A DNA stretch of 10,488 bases from a virus. Taxonomy: Duplodnaviria > Heunggongvirae > Uroviricota > Caudoviricetes. How positions within the stretch are numbered: position 1 is the stretch's first letter; each line of letters opens with the position of its first letter. The stretch lies in IMG/VR virus record IMGVR_UViG_2534681663_000022, one strand, 5' to 3'. Both the position numbers and the translations under genes were made by a program. Shown here one piece after another: positions 1-10,488 of the stretch. The notes beneath the pieces are model-generated. The model was not told the DNA's origin, did no database searches, and saw only the letters and a list, made by a program, of their open reading frames with translations.

Positions 1-1975
<1,975 letters not shown>

Positions 1976-1978
1976 CAG

Positions 1979-2230
1979 TTAGTCCTGATTTTTATCCACC
2001 CTGAGTAGTTCGCGCAGAGCAAAGGCATCCCCTTTTCTGGCAAGCTTAAACAATGCCGCTCGTAACTCGGCTTCACCTTTCGCTCTGCCCTTACGGATGG
2101 CCGCATAAAAATCTGTCATTGCTTCCCGATTTTCTTTCAGTCGGTTCAGATCAACATCCAGAACGTCAGCGATTTGTTGTGCAGTCATCCGGCACGCTGC
2201 CAGAGACTCGACTTTCGAATACGGAATCAT
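1979..2230 (-). CDS. Small hypothetical phage protein (83 aa), possibly DNA-binding, immediately upstream of the terminase small subunit
   Basis: ATG at 2228-2230 is preceded by GGGGGTGA; the stop at 1979-1981 lies 3 nt before the terminase start. It overlaps the 3' end of the upstream gene by 65 nt in another frame. No family recognised. Confidence 0.4.
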   Translation of the reverse strand: MIPYSKVESLAACRMTAQQIADVLDVDLNRLKENREAMTDFYAAIRKGRAKGEAELRAALFKLARKGDAFALRELLRVDKNQD

Positions 2231-3122
2231 TTGTCACCCCCATTGATATGCAGGGTGTCTTCTTCCTGTATTTTTCGTGAAGGATTTTTACTGCAGCGTT
2301 GTTCCAGGTGACCTGATGGTGAATGCGTTTATGGCTGGCACCCATCAGTGAGATTTTTACGCACGACGGCGAATACATGACGGAGTAAAAACTTTTAACG
2401 TAGGTTCCGGAATCCAGATACAGCTCGGTCATTCCGCCGCTGTTTTTCTGCGTCTGTTTCTGCCCTAACTGGACAGCACCGATCGTCATAAACAATTCAC
2501 CACAGCGACCGAGATTCGTGTACGTATTCACATCCTCGTTAATGCGCCCCATGAATGAGAACGGTCGATCAACCGAACAGATAAAGCTGTTCATTGCCTT
2601 GCGTTTCACCCACGAAGCATGGCCGCCATTGTCACCAAGAAAATCCCCGCCCTGCGACATAGCGATGGAAAGCGCGGGTATTGATTCGTAATACGCCAGC
2701 ATTTCAGAAAGGATCGCATCCAGTTTCCTTATCGGGAAATAGGCCTGGTCATAGTTGCGATCCACCCGAAACTGGAACTCGTGATAATCATCATCGAGCT
2801 GAATGAAGTATTTACACCCGACCAGTTTTGCCAGGTCGAAACAGGCATTACGGGCGTAAAAAATTGAGCGGCGATCACCAAAATTATCGGCTTCGTCAAA
2901 ACGACTGGCAATATCGGCTTTGGAAAATACCAGCACCTGTTCACCAAATTCAGCCATGTACTGATGCCGTGTCTTATCTTCATCATCAACAACGATAAAA
3001 ATTTTCCCGGTATAGCCAGCACGACGCAACGTCCGGTAAGTCAGAACTTTGTCCGGTCGCCCGTGAGTCAGAATAAAGGCGCAAAAATCATCACGCATAT
3101 TCCTCCTCCTCCTCCCCGCCAT
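2166..3122 (-). CDS. Putative GT-A fold (GT2-like) glycosyltransferase, soluble, with a DxD motif
   Basis: Motif order matches the GT2 N-terminal domain: FILTHGRPD (beta1), KIFIVVDDEDKT (beta2 with DD), KYFIQLDDDYHEF (DxD). No C-terminal transmembrane helices, so unlike GtrB. Alternative ATG at 3096-3098 sits directly after a GGAGGAGGAGGAGG run and overlaps the upstream stop. Confidence 0.5.
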   Translation of the reverse strand: MAGRRRRNMRDDFCAFILTHGRPDKVLTYRTLRRAGYTGKIFIVVDDEDKTRHQYMAEFGEQVLVFSKADIASRFDEADNFGDRRSIFYARNACFDLAKLVGCKYFIQLDDDYHEFQFRVDRNYDQAYFPIRKLDAILSEMLAYYESIPALSIAMSQGGDFLGDNGGHASWVKRKAMNSFICSVDRPFSFMGRINEDVNTYTNLGRCGELFMTIGAVQLGQKQTQKNSGGMTELYLDSGTYVKSFYSVMYSPSCVKISLMGASHKRIHHQVTWNNAAVKILHEKYRKKTPCISMGVTNDSVFESRVSGSVPDDCTTNR

Positions 3123-3885
3123 GCATGATCTCCACCATGCGCTGCGTCATTCGGACAAATCCATTTTCAATAGCCTGCTGATAATCAATGATCACCAGCG
3201 CCGACTCCTCGAAAAGGCACTGAATTTCAGCGGGGGCATGAGCGTAATAGTCCGCAATTCTGCTGAAATTAAACACTGTGTGACGTTCTGCCGCACACAG
3301 GAGGAATTTCTCAATATCAGGATCAAGGGACGCCGAACGTATCCGGCTGATCAGCTCCTGAGTTTTCGTATCGTCGTACAGTTCACTGATATCCGGTTTA
3401 CCGCCCGACGGCTCATAAACAGGCGTATCAATTTTCGTCGTATACGGCTCCTCCTCATTTCCTGTACCGGGCAAAACATCCGTCAACAGTTCATCAATTT
3501 CTGTCGGGATGAAGCCTGTCAGGGAGACATCAAAATCAGCATTGATTAGGTCCGACAGCTCCATCCGCAACAGATCTTCATCCCAGCCAGCATTCATCGG
3601 CAGGCGATTATCTGCCAGGCGGGACGCCTTTTTCTGCTCATCCGTCAGGCCAGACAGAACAATGACCGGAACAGAATCCATTTTGAGCATTTCAGCCGCC
3701 ATAACACGACCGTGACCCGCAATAATTTCGCCCTTTTCGTCAATCAGCACCGGATTAGTCCAGCCGAATTGCTTAATACTTTCTACCAGTTGTGCCACCT
3801 GCTCAGGGCTGTGCGTCCTGGCGTTGTGCGCATACGGTGACAATTCTTGTAATGGGCGATAGACTATCTTTAATTTCTCGCTCAT
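3091..3885 (-). CDS. ParB/Srx-like nuclease-domain protein with an acidic C-terminal tail; no methyltransferase motifs
   Basis: ATG at 3883-3885 is preceded by AAGG. The N-terminal domain carries ParB-type motifs (KIVYRPLQELSPYAHNARTH...IIAGHGR...). The C-terminal 160 aa lack DPPY/NPPY motifs and end GGEEEEEYA. Confidence 0.75.
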   Translation of the reverse strand: MSEKLKIVYRPLQELSPYAHNARTHSPEQVAQLVESIKQFGWTNPVLIDEKGEIIAGHGRVMAAEMLKMDSVPVIVLSGLTDEQKKASRLADNRLPMNAGWDEDLLRMELSDLINADFDVSLTGFIPTEIDELLTDVLPGTGNEEEPYTTKIDTPVYEPSGGKPDISELYDDTKTQELISRIRSASLDPDIEKFLLCAAERHTVFNFSRIADYYAHAPAEIQCLFEESALVIIDYQQAIENGFVRMTQRMVEIMHGGEEEEEYA

Positions 3886-3902
3886 ACAGCCTTGCTTTAT
3901 GA

Positions 3903-3936
3903 ATAAAACGCACCCCAGCAGCCAGTGCTACTGGGG
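3903..3936 (-). terminator. Putative intrinsic terminator downstream of trkG
   Basis: Minus-strand hairpin CCCCAGTAGC-ACTG-GCTGCTGGGG (10-bp stem with one T-G wobble) followed by TGCGTTTTATT. Confidence 0.5.
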
Positions 3937-4022
3937 ACGGAGGGGTTGCTGGTAAAGTTAGGTATTGGATCAATGAGTGAGTCAACATAATATTAAACTC
4001 ACAATTATAAATCAGCCATATA

Positions 4023-5480
4023 TTAGGAGCGCCAAAAAAAACCTGAAAACAATATAATAACAGGATAAATTTCAAGGCGACCAAGAATCATAGCTATGCA
4101 CATTAAACATTTTGCAATGTCATTAAGCACTCCGAATGACGATGCAGTAGCCCCAAAACCTAATCCCATATTATTAATACATGCAGCCACTGTTGCAAAT
4201 GATGTAAGAAAATCATATCCCATACCATTTAACACCAGTATAAAAAACACCGTGAAGAGAGTATAAAGAAAAAAGAAACTCCATACAGACCTCATTACAC
4301 GATCTGTAACTATCTTCCCTCCTACATTTACACTCAACAACGCTCTGGGATGAGAAAGCTGATTTATCTCGTGTTTGCTTTGTTTGAAAAGTATAAGAAA
4401 TCGAAGTGACTTAATTCCACCACAAGTTGAACCTATACATCCCCCAAAGAAACTTGACAACAGCAAAAACACTATCGTGTGCGTGGGCCAACTTGCATAA
4501 TCCTGCGTAGCTAAACCATTATCAGTGAGCATGGAGCTGGCAAGAAAAAACGAATGAATAAAACTTCCATGCAAGTCATACATACCTATATGCCAGACCT
4601 GGAAAGAGGTAACAATGATCACCCCTAAGGCTATTAACAGAAAGAAACGAAGTTCAATATCTCTGATTAAAGGTTTTATCGTTTTCCTGCTAATAACAAT
4701 ATACCAAAGAGTGAAGTTGAAAGCCGATAGCAGGGAAAAAGAACCAGCCACCAGCTCAACCAAATAGTTATTAAAATATCCGATACTCTCGCTATGAGTT
4801 GAGAAACCACCAAGCGAAACTGTGGAAATCCCGTGACAAATAGCATCAAACAAAGGCATTCCTGCAAGTCTATAACAGACAATACAAGCAATACCTAATA
4901 AAGAATAAGTTATCCACAGTGTCCGTGACGTATCGGCCAGGCGGGGAGTGAGTTTGTCATCCTTAAATGGCCCCGGCATTTCTGACTGATAAAGCTTTGC
5001 ACCACCAATACCCAATAATGGCAATACAGCAACCGCCAGAACAATAACTCCTAAACCACCTATAAAATTTAACTGTGACCGATAGTACAAATATGCCCGA
5101 GGTAATGAACTAACATCATCAATTACAGTTGCTCCTGTTGTTGTTATTCCAGAAACCCCTTCAAACAGAGCATCAATGAACGTTAAATTAAGTTCTGAGT
5201 CAATCCATAAAGGGAATGCACTAATAACAGAAAACAAAATCCAAAACATTACAATTATAATAAACCCATCACGGGTACGTAATTGAATGCCAGATTTCTT
5301 AGTTGTATACCACGCTCCGCCACCAATGCAAAAAAATATAACGAAAGTTATAAAGAAAACGAACAGGCTTTTTTCTTTATAAAACAATGCTACAACCATT
5401 GGTGGCAACATTGAAAGACTATAGAGCCAAACCAGGAACCCACACATATGAGTAACAACTCTTACATGAGATGTATTCAT
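4023..5480 (-). CDS. trkG: Trk-system potassium uptake protein TrkG (TrkH/TrkG family membrane transporter), prophage cargo gene
   Basis: The 485-aa product from ATG 5478-5480 (MNTSHVRVVTHMCGFLVWLYSL...) matches the recalled E. coli Rac-prophage TrkG in length and sequence. It is multi-pass hydrophobic with repeated glycine-rich pore motifs. The gene and its flanks are visibly AT-rich compared with neighbouring phage genes. The ORF track starts at a TTG 18 nt upstream. Confidence 0.9.
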   Translation of the reverse strand: MNTSHVRVVTHMCGFLVWLYSLSMLPPMVVALFYKEKSLFVFFITFVIFFCIGGGAWYTTKKSGIQLRTRDGFIIIVMFWILFSVISAFPLWIDSELNLTFIDALFEGVSGITTTGATVIDDVSSLPRAYLYYRSQLNFIGGLGVIVLAVAVLPLLGIGGAKLYQSEMPGPFKDDKLTPRLADTSRTLWITYSLLGIACIVCYRLAGMPLFDAICHGISTVSLGGFSTHSESIGYFNNYLVELVAGSFSLLSAFNFTLWYIVISRKTIKPLIRDIELRFFLLIALGVIIVTSFQVWHIGMYDLHGSFIHSFFLASSMLTDNGLATQDYASWPTHTIVFLLLSSFFGGCIGSTCGGIKSLRFLILFKQSKHEINQLSHPRALLSVNVGGKIVTDRVMRSVWSFFFLYTLFTVFFILVLNGMGYDFLTSFATVAACINNMGLGFGATASSFGVLNDIAKCLMCIAMILGRLEIYPVIILFSGFFWRS

Positions 5481-5617
5481 ATCTAAATATTCTTTCAATT
5501 ATAACCACCTTGCTGCAATATTATGATTATACTGTATAAAATTTAACTCCTCTTAGATCTTACTTCACTGTTCCTTATGAAACAATCATCAAAATGAATC
5601 ATATTGTAGTTAAGATT

Positions 5618-6082
5618 TTACTTTAAACACTGCTCGGTTATGTATTGCTGAGCACCTTCAAGTTGGGCCTGCATCATTACCAGTCGTTCCCGGAGGGTGA
5701 AATAATCCCGTTCAGCGGTGTCTGCCAGTCGGGGGGAGGCTGCATTATCCACGCCGGAGGCGGTGGTGGCTTCACGCACTGACTGACAGACTGCTTTGAT
5801 GTGCAACCGACGACGACCAGCGGCAACATCATCACGCAGAACATCATTTTCAGCTTTCGCATCAGCTAACTCCTTCGTGTATTTTGCATCGAGCGCAGCA
5901 ACATCACGCTGACGCATCTGCATGTCAGTAATTGCCGCGTTCGCCAGCTTCAGTTCTCTGGCATTTTTGTCGCGCTGTTCTTTGTAGGCGATGGCGTTAT
6001 CACGGTAATGATTAACACCCCATGACAGGCAGACGACGATGCAGATAACCAGAGCGGAGATAATCGCGGTTACTCTGTTCAT
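5618..6082 (-). CDS. Rz i-spanin (inner-membrane spanin subunit)
   Basis: Near-identical to the recalled lambda Rz ([15 protein letters not shown]...[52 protein letters not shown]...). ATG at 6080-6082 overlaps the endolysin stop as ATGA. The ORF track extends it to a GTG at 6094. Confidence 0.9.
5677..5862 (-). CDS. Rz1 o-spanin (outer-membrane lipoprotein), embedded in Rz in a different frame
   Basis: Signal peptide with lipobox VVGC and a proline-rich mature region ([16 protein letters not shown]); fully nested within Rz, as in lambda Rz/Rz1. Confidence 0.85.
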
Positions 6083-6576
6083 TGCTGACCCCACAAACAG
6101 ATTTCACGCTCAATCTCACGACGAGTCATGAGACCTTTCCATTGCTTACCGCCAGCATATGTCCAGCGACGTAGCTGATCACATGCGCCTTTGATATCGC
6201 CCTGGTTTATTTTGCGAAGAAGCGTCGATGTTCTGAAATTGCCAGCACCCACGTTGTAAACGAATGAGTAAAGAGCGCCGCGCGTTGTTTCCGGTATATC
6301 GACTTTGATGTACGGGTTAATTTGTCTGGCGACCGTGGCAAGGTCTTTATTCAAGAGTGTTTTGCATTCTGCTTTGGTATACGTTTTACCGAGCATGATG
6401 TCTTTTCCTGTATGCCCGTGACATACAGTCCATACACCAACAATATCTTTGTATGGTATGTAGCTGACACCTTCCAGACCATCGTTACCACTTGGGCCAG
6501 TGATTAACACTGATGCTATAGCAATTGCTCCGCCACCAATAGCAGCAGCAACGACTTTTCGTAATGATGGAGGCAT
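6079..6576 (-). CDS. SAR endolysin (T4-lysozyme-like muramidase, phage 21 R / P1 Lyz type)
   Basis: Gly/Ala-rich signal-anchor-release N-terminal domain ([18 protein letters not shown]) and the catalytic triad E35, D44, T50 at the positions seen in R21. The start ATG overlaps the holin stop. Confidence 0.9.
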
Positions 6577-6791
6577 TATTCACCTCTCGCAGCCTTGCGC
6601 TTATCTTCTTTAATCTTGAAATAAAGGTTTGTCAGGTACGTCAGCAGGCCAAATACCAGACTACCCAGCACACCGATTGCAGCCCACTGTGACGGAGTTA
6701 CTCTATCGAGCAACTGTAAAAACCAGTAGCCAGCACTGCCTGCGGAGGTGCCGTAGGCAATGCCTGTTGAAATTTTGTCCATGGATTTCAT
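6576..6791 (-). CDS. Pinholin, phage 21 S-type, with dual-start motif (71-aa and 68-aa forms)
   Basis: ATG at 6789-6791 is preceded by GGAGGTGA. Product [71 protein letters not shown] has Met1/Met4 dual starts and two transmembrane segments. The 90-aa ORF in the track uses an upstream non-ATG start and is probably over-extended. Confidence 0.9.
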
Positions 6792-6892
6792 AGCCTCACC
6801 TCCGCACGGAACGGATGGCATAGTTATTATGTGTAGGCTTTCAGACACATCAATCAGAGCCTTAATTGATATATATGCTGGAGACGATGCAA

Positions 6893-6917
6893 TATAAAAA
6901 GCTCGCCGTAGCGAGCT
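6893..6917 (-). terminator. Intrinsic terminator downstream of the lipoprotein genes
   Basis: Minus-strand hairpin AGCTCGC-TACG-GCGAGCT followed by TTTTTAT. Confidence 0.6.
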
Positions 6918-7042
6918 AATAAAATGTATTTCTCTGATATTATGTTTATTTGTATTAGCTCAGACTTGACATCACAGGTTTCGTATATAGAACATCATCA
7001 AATCTGTCAGTTTGCTATGAATGAGATATAGTAATTGAAGAG

Positions 7043-7438
7043 CTAACCTCGCATGTCAAAGCCAGATTTCTGAAAATCTCTGTAGACTTCCGGATTGTTG
7101 AAGGCCGGAAATTTGGCTTTATGAGCTGCGGACTTTATCGCTTCGCAATAGGCTTTATCACCGTTACTGGTAGATATTTTTAACGCCGTGCCATCCTGAG
7201 AGAATTCCATATGCAACCTGCATTTTTTCCCTTTCCAGTTATGCGGCTCATCAAGTTTGGCATTAATTGCAGCTCTGATTCCCCGCGCTTGCGCCCCCCA
7301 TTCATCCTGATCATCCCAGCGTCCTGAACTGCAACTACCTGTAGCAGTAGTTTTGTGGCAATCTGAAGGGTGTAAAGGTGTGCATCCCGCAACAAAACCG
7401 ACCCAAAAAGTCAACATAACGATTTTCTTTAATCCCAC
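7043..7438 (-). CDS. Lipoprotein with a divergent TolA domain III-like C-terminal domain (paralog of the gene at 7589-8017)
   Basis: GTG at 7436-7438 is preceded by AGGAG at 6-nt spacing. Signal peptide MGLKKIVMLTFWVGFVAGC has lipobox VAGC, Thr at +2. The C-terminal segment IRAAINAKL...GKKCRLHMEFSQDGTALKI...YCEAIKSAAHKAKFPAFNNPEVYRDFQKSGFD aligns with the other lipoprotein and with the TolA C-terminus. Confidence 0.65.
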   Translation of the reverse strand: MGLKKIVMLTFWVGFVAGCTPLHPSDCHKTTATGSCSSGRWDDQDEWGAQARGIRAAINAKLDEPHNWKGKKCRLHMEFSQDGTALKISTSNGDKAYCEAIKSAAHKAKFPAFNNPEVYRDFQKSGFDMRG

Positions 7439-7588
7439 TTCTTGCTCCTCAATCCATTAAAATCTCAGCAATAGTAGTTGTTACGTCCGCCACTGGCTCA
7501 GAGCTGACTATCCGCTAAATTTAGCTCAGTGCCGTAGCTGTGTCAGAACAAACCTAAGCCGAAACCGTTTATTACAAAACAATAAATA

Positions 7589-8017
7589 TCAGGGTTTAAA
7601 ATCCAGCACCCCATTTTGAAATACTTTATATACTTCCGGCGAAGGGGGGGCAGGTATATCAGCATTCTTTATCGCATTCATCGCTTCACGACATAAATCG
7701 AGGTCTCCACTTTCTCTTTTAACCTCCAGTAGAAGGCCATTCGGGGCCATATGCATTCTCAGTGTACACTCTTTTCCTGAATACTTACTCGCATCCCCGA
7801 ACTGTTTTTCGATGGCGCTCTTGATTTGATGGGCATACAGACGGATATCCTCACTAACATCAGAAGTACGTTCAGATGAACTCACATACTGTGTCTCTAT
7901 TGCTTTATCGGAGTAATATGATGTACGGTCATGATAATTTGTCGATACAGCATCAGTGCACCCGATAATAATCCCACTAATAATCAACGTAAGAATTGAT
8001 GCGCTACGAAAACCCAT
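7589..8017 (-). CDS. Lipoprotein carrying a TolA domain III-like C-terminal domain
   Basis: ATG at 8015-8017 is preceded by GAGG. Signal peptide has lipobox IIGC, Thr at +2, then a Ser/Thr/Tyr-rich linker. The C-terminal 85 aa (IRLYAHQIKSAIEKQFGDASKYSGKECTLRMHMAPNGLLLEVKRESGDLDLCREAMNAIKNADIPAPPSPEVYKVFQNGVLDFKP) closely parallel the recalled E. coli TolA C-terminus (..YAGQIKSAIESKFYDASSYAGKTCTLRIKLAPDGMLLDIKPEGGDPALCQAALAAAKLAKIPKPPSQAVYEVFKNAPLDFKP). Confidence 0.75.
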   Translation of the reverse strand: MGFRSASILTLIISGIIIGCTDAVSTNYHDRTSYYSDKAIETQYVSSSERTSDVSEDIRLYAHQIKSAIEKQFGDASKYSGKECTLRMHMAPNGLLLEVKRESGDLDLCREAMNAIKNADIPAPPSPEVYKVFQNGVLDFKP

Positions 8018-8046
8018 TTTTCCTCACATATGTCATATAGTAAAGG

Positions 8047-8076
8047 ATTATATATACCGTTGTTTTGGACGCTCAA
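8047..8076 (-). promoter_or_regulatory. Putative sigma70 promoter for the lipoprotein genes
   Basis: Minus strand reads TTGAGC (-35, plus 8071-8076), an 18-bp spacer, then TATAAT (-10, plus 8047-8052), about 30 nt upstream of the 8017 start codon. Confidence 0.45.
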
Positions 8077-8604
8077 ACAGCGAATCAGATCAAATAAAAC
8101 GCACATTTGTTAACATTTACACAAAGTCTGCGTGGGATATTCTGAAAGAATATCCATAATGTGGAGAGAATCTATTGAAGTGCATGGTGCCGGGTGCCTC
8201 CCGGTGAACAAAATGTTCGTGATACCTGTCGGCGACAGAAAAGGTTAATGGTATCACCCCACCGCACAGGGGGATTCACCATGCAGGAGTTTTCTTAGCA
8301 AACTCACTGCGCGCCCGGCAACTCCCAACCACATAAAATGCGGAGTTTGTGGTATTTATGCATATAACTCGCAGGAATTATCTTAAAAAACTGATGTCGA
8401 TCCGGATTAAAAAGAAGCAGGTCATCATCAGATGACTGGAAAAAAGGAAAAAAAAATACTCATCATACAGTTTTGATTGCAGGGATGAGCCTGCTATGCA
8501 CAATATGCAGAATATAAGCAAGATAAAAATATGCAGGCATATTATTTCGGATTTTGTTATTAACACAACCTTTTTAATAATCATTTGGCATACAATAAAC
8601 CAGT

Positions 8605-8632
8605 CCAAAAAGAACCGCCTAAACAGGCGGTT
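8605..8632 (-). terminator. Intrinsic terminator within the Q-to-lipoprotein intergenic region
   Basis: Minus-strand hairpin AACCGCCT-GTTT-AGGCGGTT followed by CTTTTTGG. Confidence 0.6.
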
Positions 8633-8876
8633 GGTCAATACAAAGGATGCTTCGTCTTTATTATAGTAATCTGAGGCGTCGGGTGTCTTGTATCAGACAA
8701 CATATTGTCCCGCTAAACAGCGAATTACAAACCACCCTGCAATGATCTCTCATCTCATTTTATATGAGTTGACGACATCAGGATAACGCATCATCAGCCC
8801 CTGCCAAGAAATATCAAAACTCCCGCCAGCAATGTGTTATCACAATATTGTAAAAAAAACACAGCACCGAAACTAT

Positions 8877-8915
8877 AACTGGTCTCTGTTATAATTTGGA
8901 GCAGAAAGACCAGTT
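8877..8915. repeat. Perfect 9-bp inverted repeat (AACTGGTCT / AGACCAGTT) with a 21-bp spacer containing an extended -10 element TGTTATAAT
   Basis: Arms at 8877-8885 and 8907-8915; TGnTATAAT at 8887-8895 on the plus strand. Confidence 0.55.
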
Positions 8916-8952
8916 GCCCAACTAGCAGCATTCTCCCCTGCTTTCCTGACGT

Positions 8953-8979
8953 AAAAAAACCGCATTAAGCGGTTTTTTT
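8953..8979. terminator. Bidirectional intrinsic terminator about 80 nt downstream of the Q-like gene (candidate tR'-type late terminator)
   Basis: AAAAAAACCGC-ATTAA-GCGGTTTTTTT: an 11-bp perfect stem with A-run and T-run flanks, so it is functional in either orientation. Confidence 0.7.
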
Positions 8980-9059
8980 ACGATGTCCATGTCTGCAATC
9001 CGCCTCGCGATACAGCTGTGCGAAGCATAGCAAAATTGAAGCAGTTTATACGTAAGAAA

Positions 9060-9602
9060 TCAAGCCATTTTCTCAGCAAATGATTCACGCATGGGAATAT
9101 ATAGGGCATACTCAGCAACAGCTAACCAATTAGCAATCCGTTTTTCGCATGTGCTAAAACACCACTCTGGGTGTCCATCATTTAGCAATTCAGCCATTTT
9201 GCGCTTAGTCATCCCCCGCCCTTCATAGCGTTGCCGGAGAATGCAAATCAATCCTGGATGCTCTGCCAGCACCTCACTTATGACTCGATCAATACATAAC
9301 GCCTCTGCATCAGTACAATGCGCCAGCCAGCTCTTTTGCTTGCCGTTGATCATCTCTCGCAAAAACGCTTCCAGCTCAGCTTTCTCTATTCCCGCTTTTT
9401 TCATTCTACGCAGGGCTTCATTAATGGCTGTTTTCGTCAGTTTTTTGGATGCCAACAACTGATTGAACATATTCCCTGACCTGCCACCGCCAATATACGA
9501 CCAGCGCCCCCACATACGTAGTTTTCCCTGAATCCAGACACTTTCCAGCGTGGTGAGGCGAAGGTGTTCTCCGCTTTTTCCTGTATTCGTTGGGTAAATC
9601 AT
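9060..9602 (-). CDS. Putative late-gene antiterminator Q (Q82-like family)
   Basis: Last gene before the terminator and lysis cassette; start overlaps the upstream stop as ATGA; contains a WGRW motif reminiscent of the ERWGAW motif of 82-type Q proteins. The family call is from recall and position only. Confidence 0.6.
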   Translation of the reverse strand: MIYPTNTGKSGEHLRLTTLESVWIQGKLRMWGRWSYIGGGRSGNMFNQLLASKKLTKTAINEALRRMKKAGIEKAELEAFLREMINGKQKSWLAHCTDAEALCIDRVISEVLAEHPGLICILRQRYEGRGMTKRKMAELLNDGHPEWCFSTCEKRIANWLAVAEYALYIPMRESFAEKMA

Positions 9603-9889
9603 ATATGACCTTTCTTTCTCCAGATTTCTTGTGTGCGAAAAACCCCTTCAGCATGCATCAGGCGCAATTCTTCTTTGGTGTAATCGCTGGTTTTTACCCG
9701 CCCGTCGATTAGATCGTGGCATGAGCTACAGGCTATCGCCGCCTGCATATCGTGTGGTTTTGTCGCTGTTCCGCACGTCCCCGCCAGCCTGTAATGCGCC
9801 AGCACAGAGGTTTCGGGATTGTGATTGCAGTAGCCAGGGATTCTGATCTGGCACATCTGGCCTTTAGCCGCTTTACGTAAATTCACCAT
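9599..9889 (-). CDS. YbcO-like (DUF1364) Cys-rich putative nuclease of the lambdoid nin region
   Basis: MVNLRKAAKGQMCQIRIPGYCNHNPETSVLAHYRLAGTCGTATKP...IACSSCHDLIDGR closely parallels the recalled DLP12 YbcO (MADLRKAARGRECQVRIPGVCNGNPETSVLAHIRLTGLCGTGTKP..IACSACHDEIDRR). The start overlaps the upstream stop by one base. Confidence 0.75.
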   Translation of the reverse strand: MVNLRKAAKGQMCQIRIPGYCNHNPETSVLAHYRLAGTCGTATKPHDMQAAIACSSCHDLIDGRVKTSDYTKEELRLMHAEGVFRTQEIWRKKGHI

Positions 9890-10488
9890 TACGCAAACTC
9901 CAGTAGTTGTGCGGCCACATTTTCAACTTCCTCCTGAGAGGAGAATTTACGAAACAGAATCCAGTTCCACAGCACATTCAGTACAGATTTATAAACCTGC
10001 TGAAACTCGACTTCGTCCATATTCGCAAAAGCGATGGATTTTGCCCGACGCCCACGGCTACCGTCCGGATAAATATGCTCGGTGTAAAATCCGGCCTGAA
10101 TGGTTACCCACTCGCGGAAAGCCTCAAACGACTTTAGCAACGCCGTATCCCGGGTTCTACGAGTCGCAACGGTGTTAAGGTATTGCTCTGCGGCATCACT
10201 CAGGGCTGGCGTGTGTTCCCGACCAACTGATTCGCACAGGTAATCAACGAAACCAGACAGCAGTTCTCGTTCGCGAGGCGTGATCGCCCCACCGACCGGA
10301 GTCCAGTAATCGAATCCCAGTTGCAGGAGTTTGAAAAAACGCTTGTGGAATGCGTAGTTACGCACACGCTTAAAGTCTGCGTGTATCCACTCACCTATTT
10401 TGATTTGATGCAGAAAATCGCAACTCTCCGGCGTCGCCGGGAGAAGTAAACCAGAAGAAGTTTGTTTGACCAGTTGTATATGCGCCAT
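9889..10488 (-). CDS. Conserved lambdoid nin-region hypothetical protein (199 aa; possibly DUF1367-type)
   Basis: Complete ORF with ATG at 10486-10488 at the window edge, coupled to the YbcO-like gene. The family name is a tentative recollection, not verified. Confidence 0.5.
   Translation of the reverse strand: MAHIQLVKQTSSGLLLPATPESCDFLHQIKIGEWIHADFKRVRNYAFHKRFFKLLQLGFDYWTPVGGAITPRERELLSGFVDYLCESVGREHTPALSDAAEQYLNTVATRRTRDTALLKSFEAFREWVTIQAGFYTEHIYPDGSRGRRAKSIAFANMDEVEFQQVYKSVLNVLWNWILFRKFSSQEEVENVAAQLLEFA

Follow-up and report, generated by a model that had tools for sequence, protein, structure and literature searches.

The stretch of viral DNA analyzed here, hereafter the window (10,488 nucleotides of the IMG/VR record IMGVR_UViG_2534681663_000022, assigned to Caudoviricetes), carries a gene for a potassium transporter among genes for lysis and packaging, which raises the question of how such a gene came to stand there and whom it serves. 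A preliminary description drawn from the letters of the sequence had taken the gene for trkG, horizontally acquired cargo in the Rac prophage of Escherichia coli K-12, and had seen around it a late region more complete than the K-12 remnant, which might represent a less decayed, ancestor-like state. We regard it as highly probable (about 0.93) that trkG is foreign, AT-rich cargo (a 'moron') of a Rac-type lambdoid prophage, of advantage to the host and retained by selection.

Gene Content of the Window and Identity of TrkG

The window holds a minus-strand run of lambdoid late-region genes (Table 1), in which trkG has Rz upstream and the gene for a ParB_N-domain protein downstream. The prophage copy in the window is itself defective because the IS3-family element at 1-1250 truncates terS. 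No trkA was found among the genes of the 10.5-kb window, and TrkG is not among the known defence components in PADLOC. Rfam and tRNA scans detected no RNA gene within 3903-5617. A match to the Rfam family isrC was recorded in the window.

Table 1. Features of the window, from high to low coordinates (strand: minus, or a dot for features without one).
Feature	Position	Strand	Basis or remark
NinB-like / DUF1367	9889-10488	-	ORF, Pfam
DUF1364	9599-9889	-	ORF, Pfam
Q-type antiterminator (DUF1133 / Phage_antitermQ)	9060-9602	-	ORF, Pfam
Two TolA C-terminal-domain genes	7589-8017, 7043-7438	-	ORF, Pfam
P21-type holin	6576-6848	-	ORF, Pfam
Lysozyme	6079-6576	-	ORF, Pfam
Rz (i-spanin, PF03245) with embedded Rz1 (o-spanin, 5677-5862)	5618-6094	-	Phage_lysis, 179 bits
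Only window segment retained in K-12 Rac (rzpR', rzoR, trkG, ynaK)	3632-6062	.	blastn
AT-rich, putatively imported block	3950-5627	.	right edge, end of Rz homology; left edge, 100-nt GC profile
Alternative promoter-like site (TTTAAA, 18 nt, TATGAT)	5598-5627	-	consensus scan, 9/12 matches
AT-rich Rz-trkG spacer; regulatory region, probable H-NS target	5481-5617	-	25.5% GC; identical to K-12
Candidate -10 element, perfect TATAAT	5526-5531	-	sequence; poor -35
Shine-Dalgarno-like AAGGTGG	5505-5511	-	6 nt upstream of TTG
Possible N-terminal extension from in-frame TTG (5498-5496)	5481-5498	-	ORF 4023-5498, 491 aa
trkG CDS, membrane subunit of the Trk K+ uptake system	4023-5480	-	ORF, Pfam TrkH, K-12 identity
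Intrinsic-terminator-like hairpin and U-tract	3903-3936	-	stem 3936-3913, U-tract 3912-3903
ParB/Srx N-terminal-domain protein, full length, 264 aa	3091-3885	-	Pfam ParB_N; PHROG 620
TAGT-family glycosyltransferase	2166-3122	-	ORF, Pfam
Small ORF with terminase-small similarity	1979-2230	-	
terS, truncated	1235-1975	-	
IS3-family element	1 to about 1250		

Read from its ATG, the trkG ORF encodes a 485-aa protein that matches TrkG of K-12 at 485 of 485 residues. In profile searches, the protein scores 484.2 bits against Pfam TrkH (PF02386; cutoff 27), covering positions 3-500 of the 502 in the profile, and passes the cutoff of TIGR00933 (415 bits; cutoff 331). Its 449.7 bits against NF008020, the TrkH equivalog model, fall under the cutoff of 866, and the window protein is therefore a paralogue and not trkH. 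A phage TrkG family is also present in PHROGs (phrog_1916).

Residues 7-485 align with few gaps to the TrkH structures of Vibrio parahaemolyticus (3pjz/4j9u; E = 1e-120). All four pore-loop glycine motifs (TTTGA, LGGFS, TDNGL, and NNMGLG) match their TrkH counterparts in this alignment, and the intramembrane loop of the form GGCxGSTxGGxK, which reads FGGCIGSTCGGIK in the window protein, is likewise aligned to the TrkH counterpart. The full-length TrkG-type transporter claimed in the preliminary description is thus borne out by the K-12 identity and the end-to-end TrkH alignment, which runs through the very motifs at which a failure to align had been named as refuting.

By sequence, the core TrkH of E. 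coli and the V. parahaemolyticus protein share family and fold with TrkG, including the four pore loops and the gating loop, and TrkH uses TrkA, as does TrkG (PMC9898762). The two differ in the equivalog score (450 bits for TrkG against the cutoff of 866), in the Na+ dependence of TrkG, and in base composition, the K-12 trkG having been described as a low-GC foreign gene in Rac with 38% GC compared to 53% for trkH (PMC9898762).

Composition and Boundaries of the AT-Rich Block

The composition of trkG departs from that of its neighbors. Its GC content is 0.381 and its GC3 is 0.323, compared to 0.522 for both measures in Rz and to 0.501 and 0.551, respectively, in the ParB-like gene. Codon usage was compared through GC3 and counts of leucine codons, and the latter are reversed between trkG (16 TTA and 11 CTG) and four flanking genes (7 TTA and 32 CTG). 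The 137-nt spacer separating the stop codon of Rz from the ATG of trkG (5481-5617) has a GC content of 25.5%. As a whole, the block at 3950-5627 has 36.5% GC against 47.8% in the remaining window (binomial z = -9.3), the lowest value of any equally long stretch in the window.

These figures uphold the claims that trkG is AT-rich, unlike its flanks (GC 38% versus 50-52%; GC3 32% versus 52-55%), and has its own AT-rich upstream region, and they exclude a GC content and codon usage indistinguishable from those of the neighbors. The concept of the moron, reportedly that of Juhala et al. in 2000, has as a criterion a composition differing from that of the flanking phage genes, and such a difference was found for trkG.

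On the right side, the window Rz has counterparts with about 93% DNA identity in phages 21 and 434 and in many lambda-like phages, but over 5628-6094 only, and in the alignment the divergence begins after ...GAGCAGTG, three codons ahead of the stop. The alignment places the right edge of the cargo at about 5628, within the last codons of Rz, and indicates that the junction rewrote these codons. The next gene after Rz in phage 21 is bor, encoded on the opposite strand. From the end of Rz homology at 5628 and the position of bor, trkG is judged to sit in the classic post-Rz cargo slot. The bor gene of lambda and phage 21 occupies the same slot, directly after Rz and before the packaging end, and is a host-benefit gene dispensable for lytic growth, as is proposed for trkG. 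The two genes differ in product, a small lipoprotein for bor and a 12-helix transporter subunit for trkG, and in strand, as bor runs against the late operon and trkG runs with it.

On the left side, the 100-nt GC profile shows the AT-rich block ending near 3950-3960, which gives a tentative edge of the cargo. We searched for an empty site with a query that joined the ParB-like gene to Rz, and among 5426 E. coli genomes the two flanks were never found joined without trkG. In the phage collection, high-identity matches to the ParB-like gene came solely from 10 trkG-bearing records, and the remaining matches had about 69% identity and were confined to the coding region. No sign of delivery of the block by an IS or transposon was seen, the direct and inverted repeats around the block being short and at chance level.

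In the hairpin downstream of trkG, 10 pairs (7 of them G-C) at 3936-3913 enclose a loop of 4, and TGCGTTTTAT continues from the stem to position 3903. The structure folds at -22.5 kcal/mol (z = -4.07), an energy that 0 of 200 shuffles reached. It is located 87 nt past the trkG stop and 18 nt ahead of the ParB-like start. The E. albertii allele, in which homology to the window stops at 4019, does not share the hairpin. The preliminary description was right that a strong terminator-like hairpin occupies exactly 3903-3936. The hairpin falls in the GC-normal portion of the downstream spacer. With the end of the AT-rich block lying near 3950-3960, it may be part of the phage backbone and not of the imported block.

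Comparison With the K-12 Rac Prophage

Between 3632 and 6062, blastn aligns the window to K-12 Rac at 99.7% identity over 2431 nt. The two sequences differ at 7 positions; two of these are synonymous substitutions within trkG, and the spacer ahead of the gene is unchanged. Beyond this segment, the K-12 sequence is unrelated to the window. The homology breaks inside Rz at 6062 and inside the ParB-like gene (ynaK) at 3632, such that the K-12 pseudogene rzpR corresponds to the 3' part of the window Rz and ynaK to the 5' 254 nt of the window ParB-like gene. K-12 Rac (trkG, b1363) has the same protein, the same spacer, the same hairpin stem, and the same position of the gene after Rz/Rz1 and before the ParB-like gene. 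The near-identical rzpR-rzoR-trkG-ynaK DNA identifies the window, at the level of sequence, as a member of the Rac group.

K-12 Rac has lost the Rz start, lysozyme, holin, Q, DUF1364, and NinB-like genes to the right of 6062, and the rest of the ParB-like gene, the glycosyltransferase gene, and terS to the left of 3632. The window keeps these genes, yet its terS carries the IS3-family insertion. The reading of trkG as horizontally acquired Rac cargo agrees with the identity of the protein and the DNA to K-12 Rac and with the foreign composition, and the late region is indeed fuller than the K-12 remnant, which is deleted on both sides of the shared segment. The suggestion of a less decayed, ancestor-like state stands in part: the context is fuller, but the state is common and terS is cut by an IS. 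It is not a rare ancestral relic, because 1096 of the approximately 1546 complete genomes that have both the ParB-like gene and trkG are intact across the K-12 ynaK breakpoint. The window thus displays the undeleted context from which the K-12 remnant derives.

Distribution of trkG and Rac-Like Prophages

Of 5426 complete E. coli genomes, 1551 carry trkG together with its flanks (1516 at 99% identity or higher), and about 71% lack the gene. At least 80% of the whole window is found in one place in 314 genomes, and many genomes match 1250-10488 at 100%, without the IS. K-12-type truncation accounts for much of the remainder beyond the genomes with an intact ParB-like gene, and the listed examples include K-12 laboratory derivatives, e.g., W3110-P.

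The same late-gene order together with a full Rac early region occurs in the record ON470595 ('vB_EcoS-683R6', a 55.7-kb 'phage' record), which adjoins ttcA, and in strain HB-Coli0. The Rac early genes in records sharing the late region are intR, xisR, ralR, recET, racC, kilR, sieB, racR, ydaS, and ydaT. Full Rac-like prophages have the order NinB-like, DUF1364/YbcO, Q, holin, lysozyme, Rz, trkG, ParB, hypothetical, terS, terL, and portal, as in the window. They differ from it in their IS insertions and in the cargo between Q and holin, which consists of tRNAs in ON470595 and of the two TolA C-terminal-domain genes in the window. Rac-like prophages more complete than that of K-12 have been described, with Sp10 and CP-933R named (PMC4632033). 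The fuller Rac state is common among E. coli and already public, and the locus itself is already known.

Transcription Signals and the Start Codon

A fragment upstream of K-12 trkG has promoter activity in a reporter assay (PMC9898762). The 137-nt spacer of the window is identical to that of K-12, which lies within the reported promoter fragment. The assignment of a candidate trkG promoter rests on this published assay (PMC9898762) and not on the present sequence analysis. The TATAAT element in the spacer recurs ahead of the homologous genes in E. albertii and E. fergusonii, and hence in three species in all, but was not selected in the consensus promoter scan, its -35 being too poor. The alternative promoter-like site shares positions with the stop codon of Rz and with the cargo junction. 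The region holds 5 promoter-like sites compared to a shuffle mean of 6.0, which is no excess. A hairpin scan found no terminator-like site between Rz and trkG.

The annotated trkG start may lie six codons too far downstream. Six codons ahead of the annotated ATG stands an in-frame TTG that is preceded by a Shine-Dalgarno-like sequence, and this pair is kept in E. albertii (AAGGTGG) and E. fergusonii (GGAGG), whereas no Shine-Dalgarno sequence is evident on reading the sequence ahead of the ATG itself. Relatives of 491 aa have ATG at the position equivalent to the TTG, and isoleucine or leucine in place of the annotated methionine of E. coli. The profile of PHROG 1916 has a length of 491 and is matched at 7-491, and the annotation of ON470595 uses the 491-aa form.

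Relatives and Evolution of trkG

The allele of E. albertii NBRC 107761 has 93% amino acid and 84% nucleotide identity to that of the window. It is chromosomal, located between yebY and the pphA-like/rsmF region, beside an NleF-like gene. A comparison of this allele with that of E. coli gives a dN/dS of 0.047 at a dS of about 0.93, and the GC3 of the E. albertii allele is 31.8%. Homology to the window spans 4019-5660 and includes about 33 nt of a degenerate Rz 3' end upstream of the E. albertii allele, in which the junction is of the window type and not of the phage 21 type. On the basis of the window-type junction in this short Rz fossil, the alignment suggests that the Rz-trkG junction is older than the split of the E. 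coli and E. albertii alleles. Together with the dN/dS and GC3 values, this short alignment might also hint that AT-richness was retained under strong purifying selection while trkG was phage-borne, an idea that is tentative.

More distant members of the TrkG clade in Enterobacterales have 61-79% identity and lengths of 485-491 aa. They include proteins from E. fergusonii (79%), Citrobacter (77%), Pectobacterium (75%), Buttiauxella (68%), and Morganella (62%), and further relatives from Pantoea and Enterobacter that fall within the range of about 62-77% amino acid identity outside Escherichia. These paralogues form one TrkH-family clade with the window TrkG, and E. fergusonii shares the SD-TTG arrangement. 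Unlike the window trkG, they stand in a non-phage context: where examined, TrkG-clade genes outside E. coli are chromosomal and not phage-borne. The E. fergusonii copy lies beside porin genes and hchA and has 42% GC in a neighborhood of 42-45% GC, the Morganella copy follows pth-ychF at a native GC of 47-49%, and the Buttiauxella copy lies among unrelated transport and metabolic genes at a native GC of 51%. A donor search across GTDB species representatives and 5.8 billion proteins returned no AT-rich, near-identical donor, and the nearest relatives outside Escherichia are not AT-rich where checked.

The low GC content of trkG could be a long-maintained trait of an old phage-borne gene instead of a mark of recent import. 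We offer this idea tentatively and consider it rather unlikely; it is prompted by the dS of about 0.93, at which both alleles nevertheless have a GC3 of about 32% and the same junction with an Rz of about 50% GC. If the idea were true, most of the divergence between the alleles would have arisen in enterobacterial lambdoid phages without drift toward host composition. This would point to selection for AT-richness, e.g., to hold a Na+/K+ transporter that could do harm under the control of H-NS, and the SD-TTG start with its 491-aa product may belong to the same low-expression design.

Function and Maintenance of trkG

The segment 3903-5617 is best explained as the trkG moron of an E. coli Rac-type lambdoid prophage, in which a foreign, AT-rich gene for a TrkH-family K+ transporter subunit occupies the slot between the lysis genes (S-R-Rz/Rz1) and those on the packaging side. 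In K-12, H-NS and StpA repress trkG without silencing it, with a transcript level similar to that of trkH, and TrkG mediates Na+-dependent K+ uptake with TrkA, Na+ being taken up as well (PMC9898762). On the K-12 literature, trkG in a lysogen would be transcribed from its own upstream region under partial repression by H-NS/StpA, and TrkG with the TrkA of the host would provide Na+-dependent uptake of K+ (and Na+), supplementing the core TrkH. Given that trkG has the orientation of the late operon and that no terminator stands between it and Rz, Q-antiterminated late transcripts are also predicted to continue through trkG and the hairpin and to reach the ParB-like, glycosyltransferase, and terminase genes. 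The benefit to the host would allow purifying selection to keep trkG while the prophage around it decays, as appears to have happened in K-12 and E. albertii.

The low dN/dS over a large dS and the intact trkG of K-12 and E. albertii, where flanking phage genes are deleted, make it very improbable that trkG is instead a neutral passenger silenced by H-NS, i.e., the product of an old, transduction-like capture that gives no benefit and persists through prophage fixation. The 25.5% GC of the upstream region is typical of H-NS targets, H-NS and StpA do repress the gene (PMC9898762), and trkG is dispensable, as seen from its absence in most complete E. coli genomes; however, repression short of silencing, a trkH-like transcript level, and K+ uptake with Na+ (PMC9898762) speak against a silent passenger. 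Less probable still is a mainly phage-serving role, in which co-transcription with the late genes would let trkG adjust the K+ content or the membrane potential late in infection, e.g., in support of synthesis or for holin triggering: the gene shares its orientation with S-R-Rz and the packaging genes, no terminator separates it from Rz, the hairpin after it would be passed by Q-modified polymerase, and PHROGs includes a phage family of TrkG, but trkG is retained in K-12 and E. albertii remnants unable to make phage, its own upstream region is active in uninduced K-12 (PMC9898762), and the other members of its clade, in Buttiauxella, Morganella, and E. fergusonii, are chromosomal. The dN/dS, the persistence of trkG in prophage remnants that are dead, and the published data on expression and uptake all weigh against both alternatives.

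Host-beneficial cargo kept by selection is thus the preferred reading of trkG. With little importance beyond housekeeping, the locus would represent a textbook case of prophage cargo turned into a working host gene.

Other Genes and Elements of the Late Region

The product of the glycosyltransferase-like gene scored 121 bits to Pfam TAGT (TET-associated glycosyltransferase) and also matched PHROG 842 (beta-glucosyl-HMC-alpha-glucosyltransferase). The gene lies immediately 3' of the ParB/Srx-N gene (3091-3885, minus strand), with the two ORFs overlapping, and is followed by the small terminase gene, terS. No TET/JBP gene was found within the window. The TAGT and ParB/Srx-N genes could be a DNA base-modification pair of Rac-like phages; the former has been lost from E. 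coli K-12. The terS gene is cut short by an IS3-family element and encodes 246 aa, compared to 364 aa in HB-Coli0, an E. coli strain with a full Rac-like prophage. Many IS-free genomes carry DNA identical to the window from position 1250 onward, and the exact insertion was found in one piece in no complete genome.

Features identified in the window
Feature	Position	Strand	Details
IS3-family element	1-1250 (end approximate)		orfA 867-1214, orfB 1-747
isrC	1060-1182		Rfam; inside the IS3-family element
Glycosyltransferase-like protein, 318 aa	2166-3122	-	Pfam TAGT, PHROG 842
Shine-Dalgarno AAGGTGG and TTG	5496-5511	-	Six codons 5' of the annotated trkG ATG
TolA C-terminal-domain proteins (two small paralogues)	7043-7438, 7589-8017	-	Pfam TolA, PHROG 5772
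STnc100 sRNA	8128-8314	-	Rfam, 86.6 bits (gathering score 47)

The cargo slot between the Q gene and the holin gene harbors the two TolA-like paralogues in the window, whereas it contains tRNAs in ON470595, a deposited 55.7-kb record of a full Rac-like prophage. Both paralogues have lipoprotein-like N-termini and belong to a PHROG family annotated as of unknown function; one possibility is that they are decoys, diverting TolA-dependent colicins or filamentous phages. Downstream of the Q gene, 1 kb is non-coding and includes the STnc100 match; the late promoter and leader would be expected here.

Start Codon and Distribution of trkG

Both E. albertii and E. fergusonii also keep the Shine-Dalgarno sequence and TTG upstream of the trkG ATG. 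In relatives 491 aa long, an ATG start codon stands at the position of this TTG. The annotated start of K-12 trkG may be wrong.

E. albertii NBRC 107761 encodes a divergent trkG allele (93% aa and 84% nt identity, GC3 32%; locus positions 5819-7462), flanked by yebY/copD on one side and a pphA-like phosphatase gene and rsmF on the other, with an NleF-like effector gene adjoining. Only a 33-nt fossil of the 3' end of Rz is left. This locus is a prophage remnant eroded still further, yet its trkG is intact. The corresponding locus of Shigella flexneri SFBU0723 aligns with window positions 1250-10488 at 98.3%, but the TrkG match is in pieces (best segment 57%), which suggests that trkG is disrupted in this strain.

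A fragment with trkG and Rz, 99.5% identical, is located on the C. freundii plasmid pA18-1 (NZ_CP022274.1, 7001-9180) and on 14 other plasmids, where it is surrounded by mobile elements (IS26, Tn5403, and IS5) and further remnants of prophages. These plasmids are large and mostly conjugative, and since their hosts include Citrobacter, Klebsiella, and Enterobacter as well as E. coli, the prophage fragment has been mobilized outside Escherichia.
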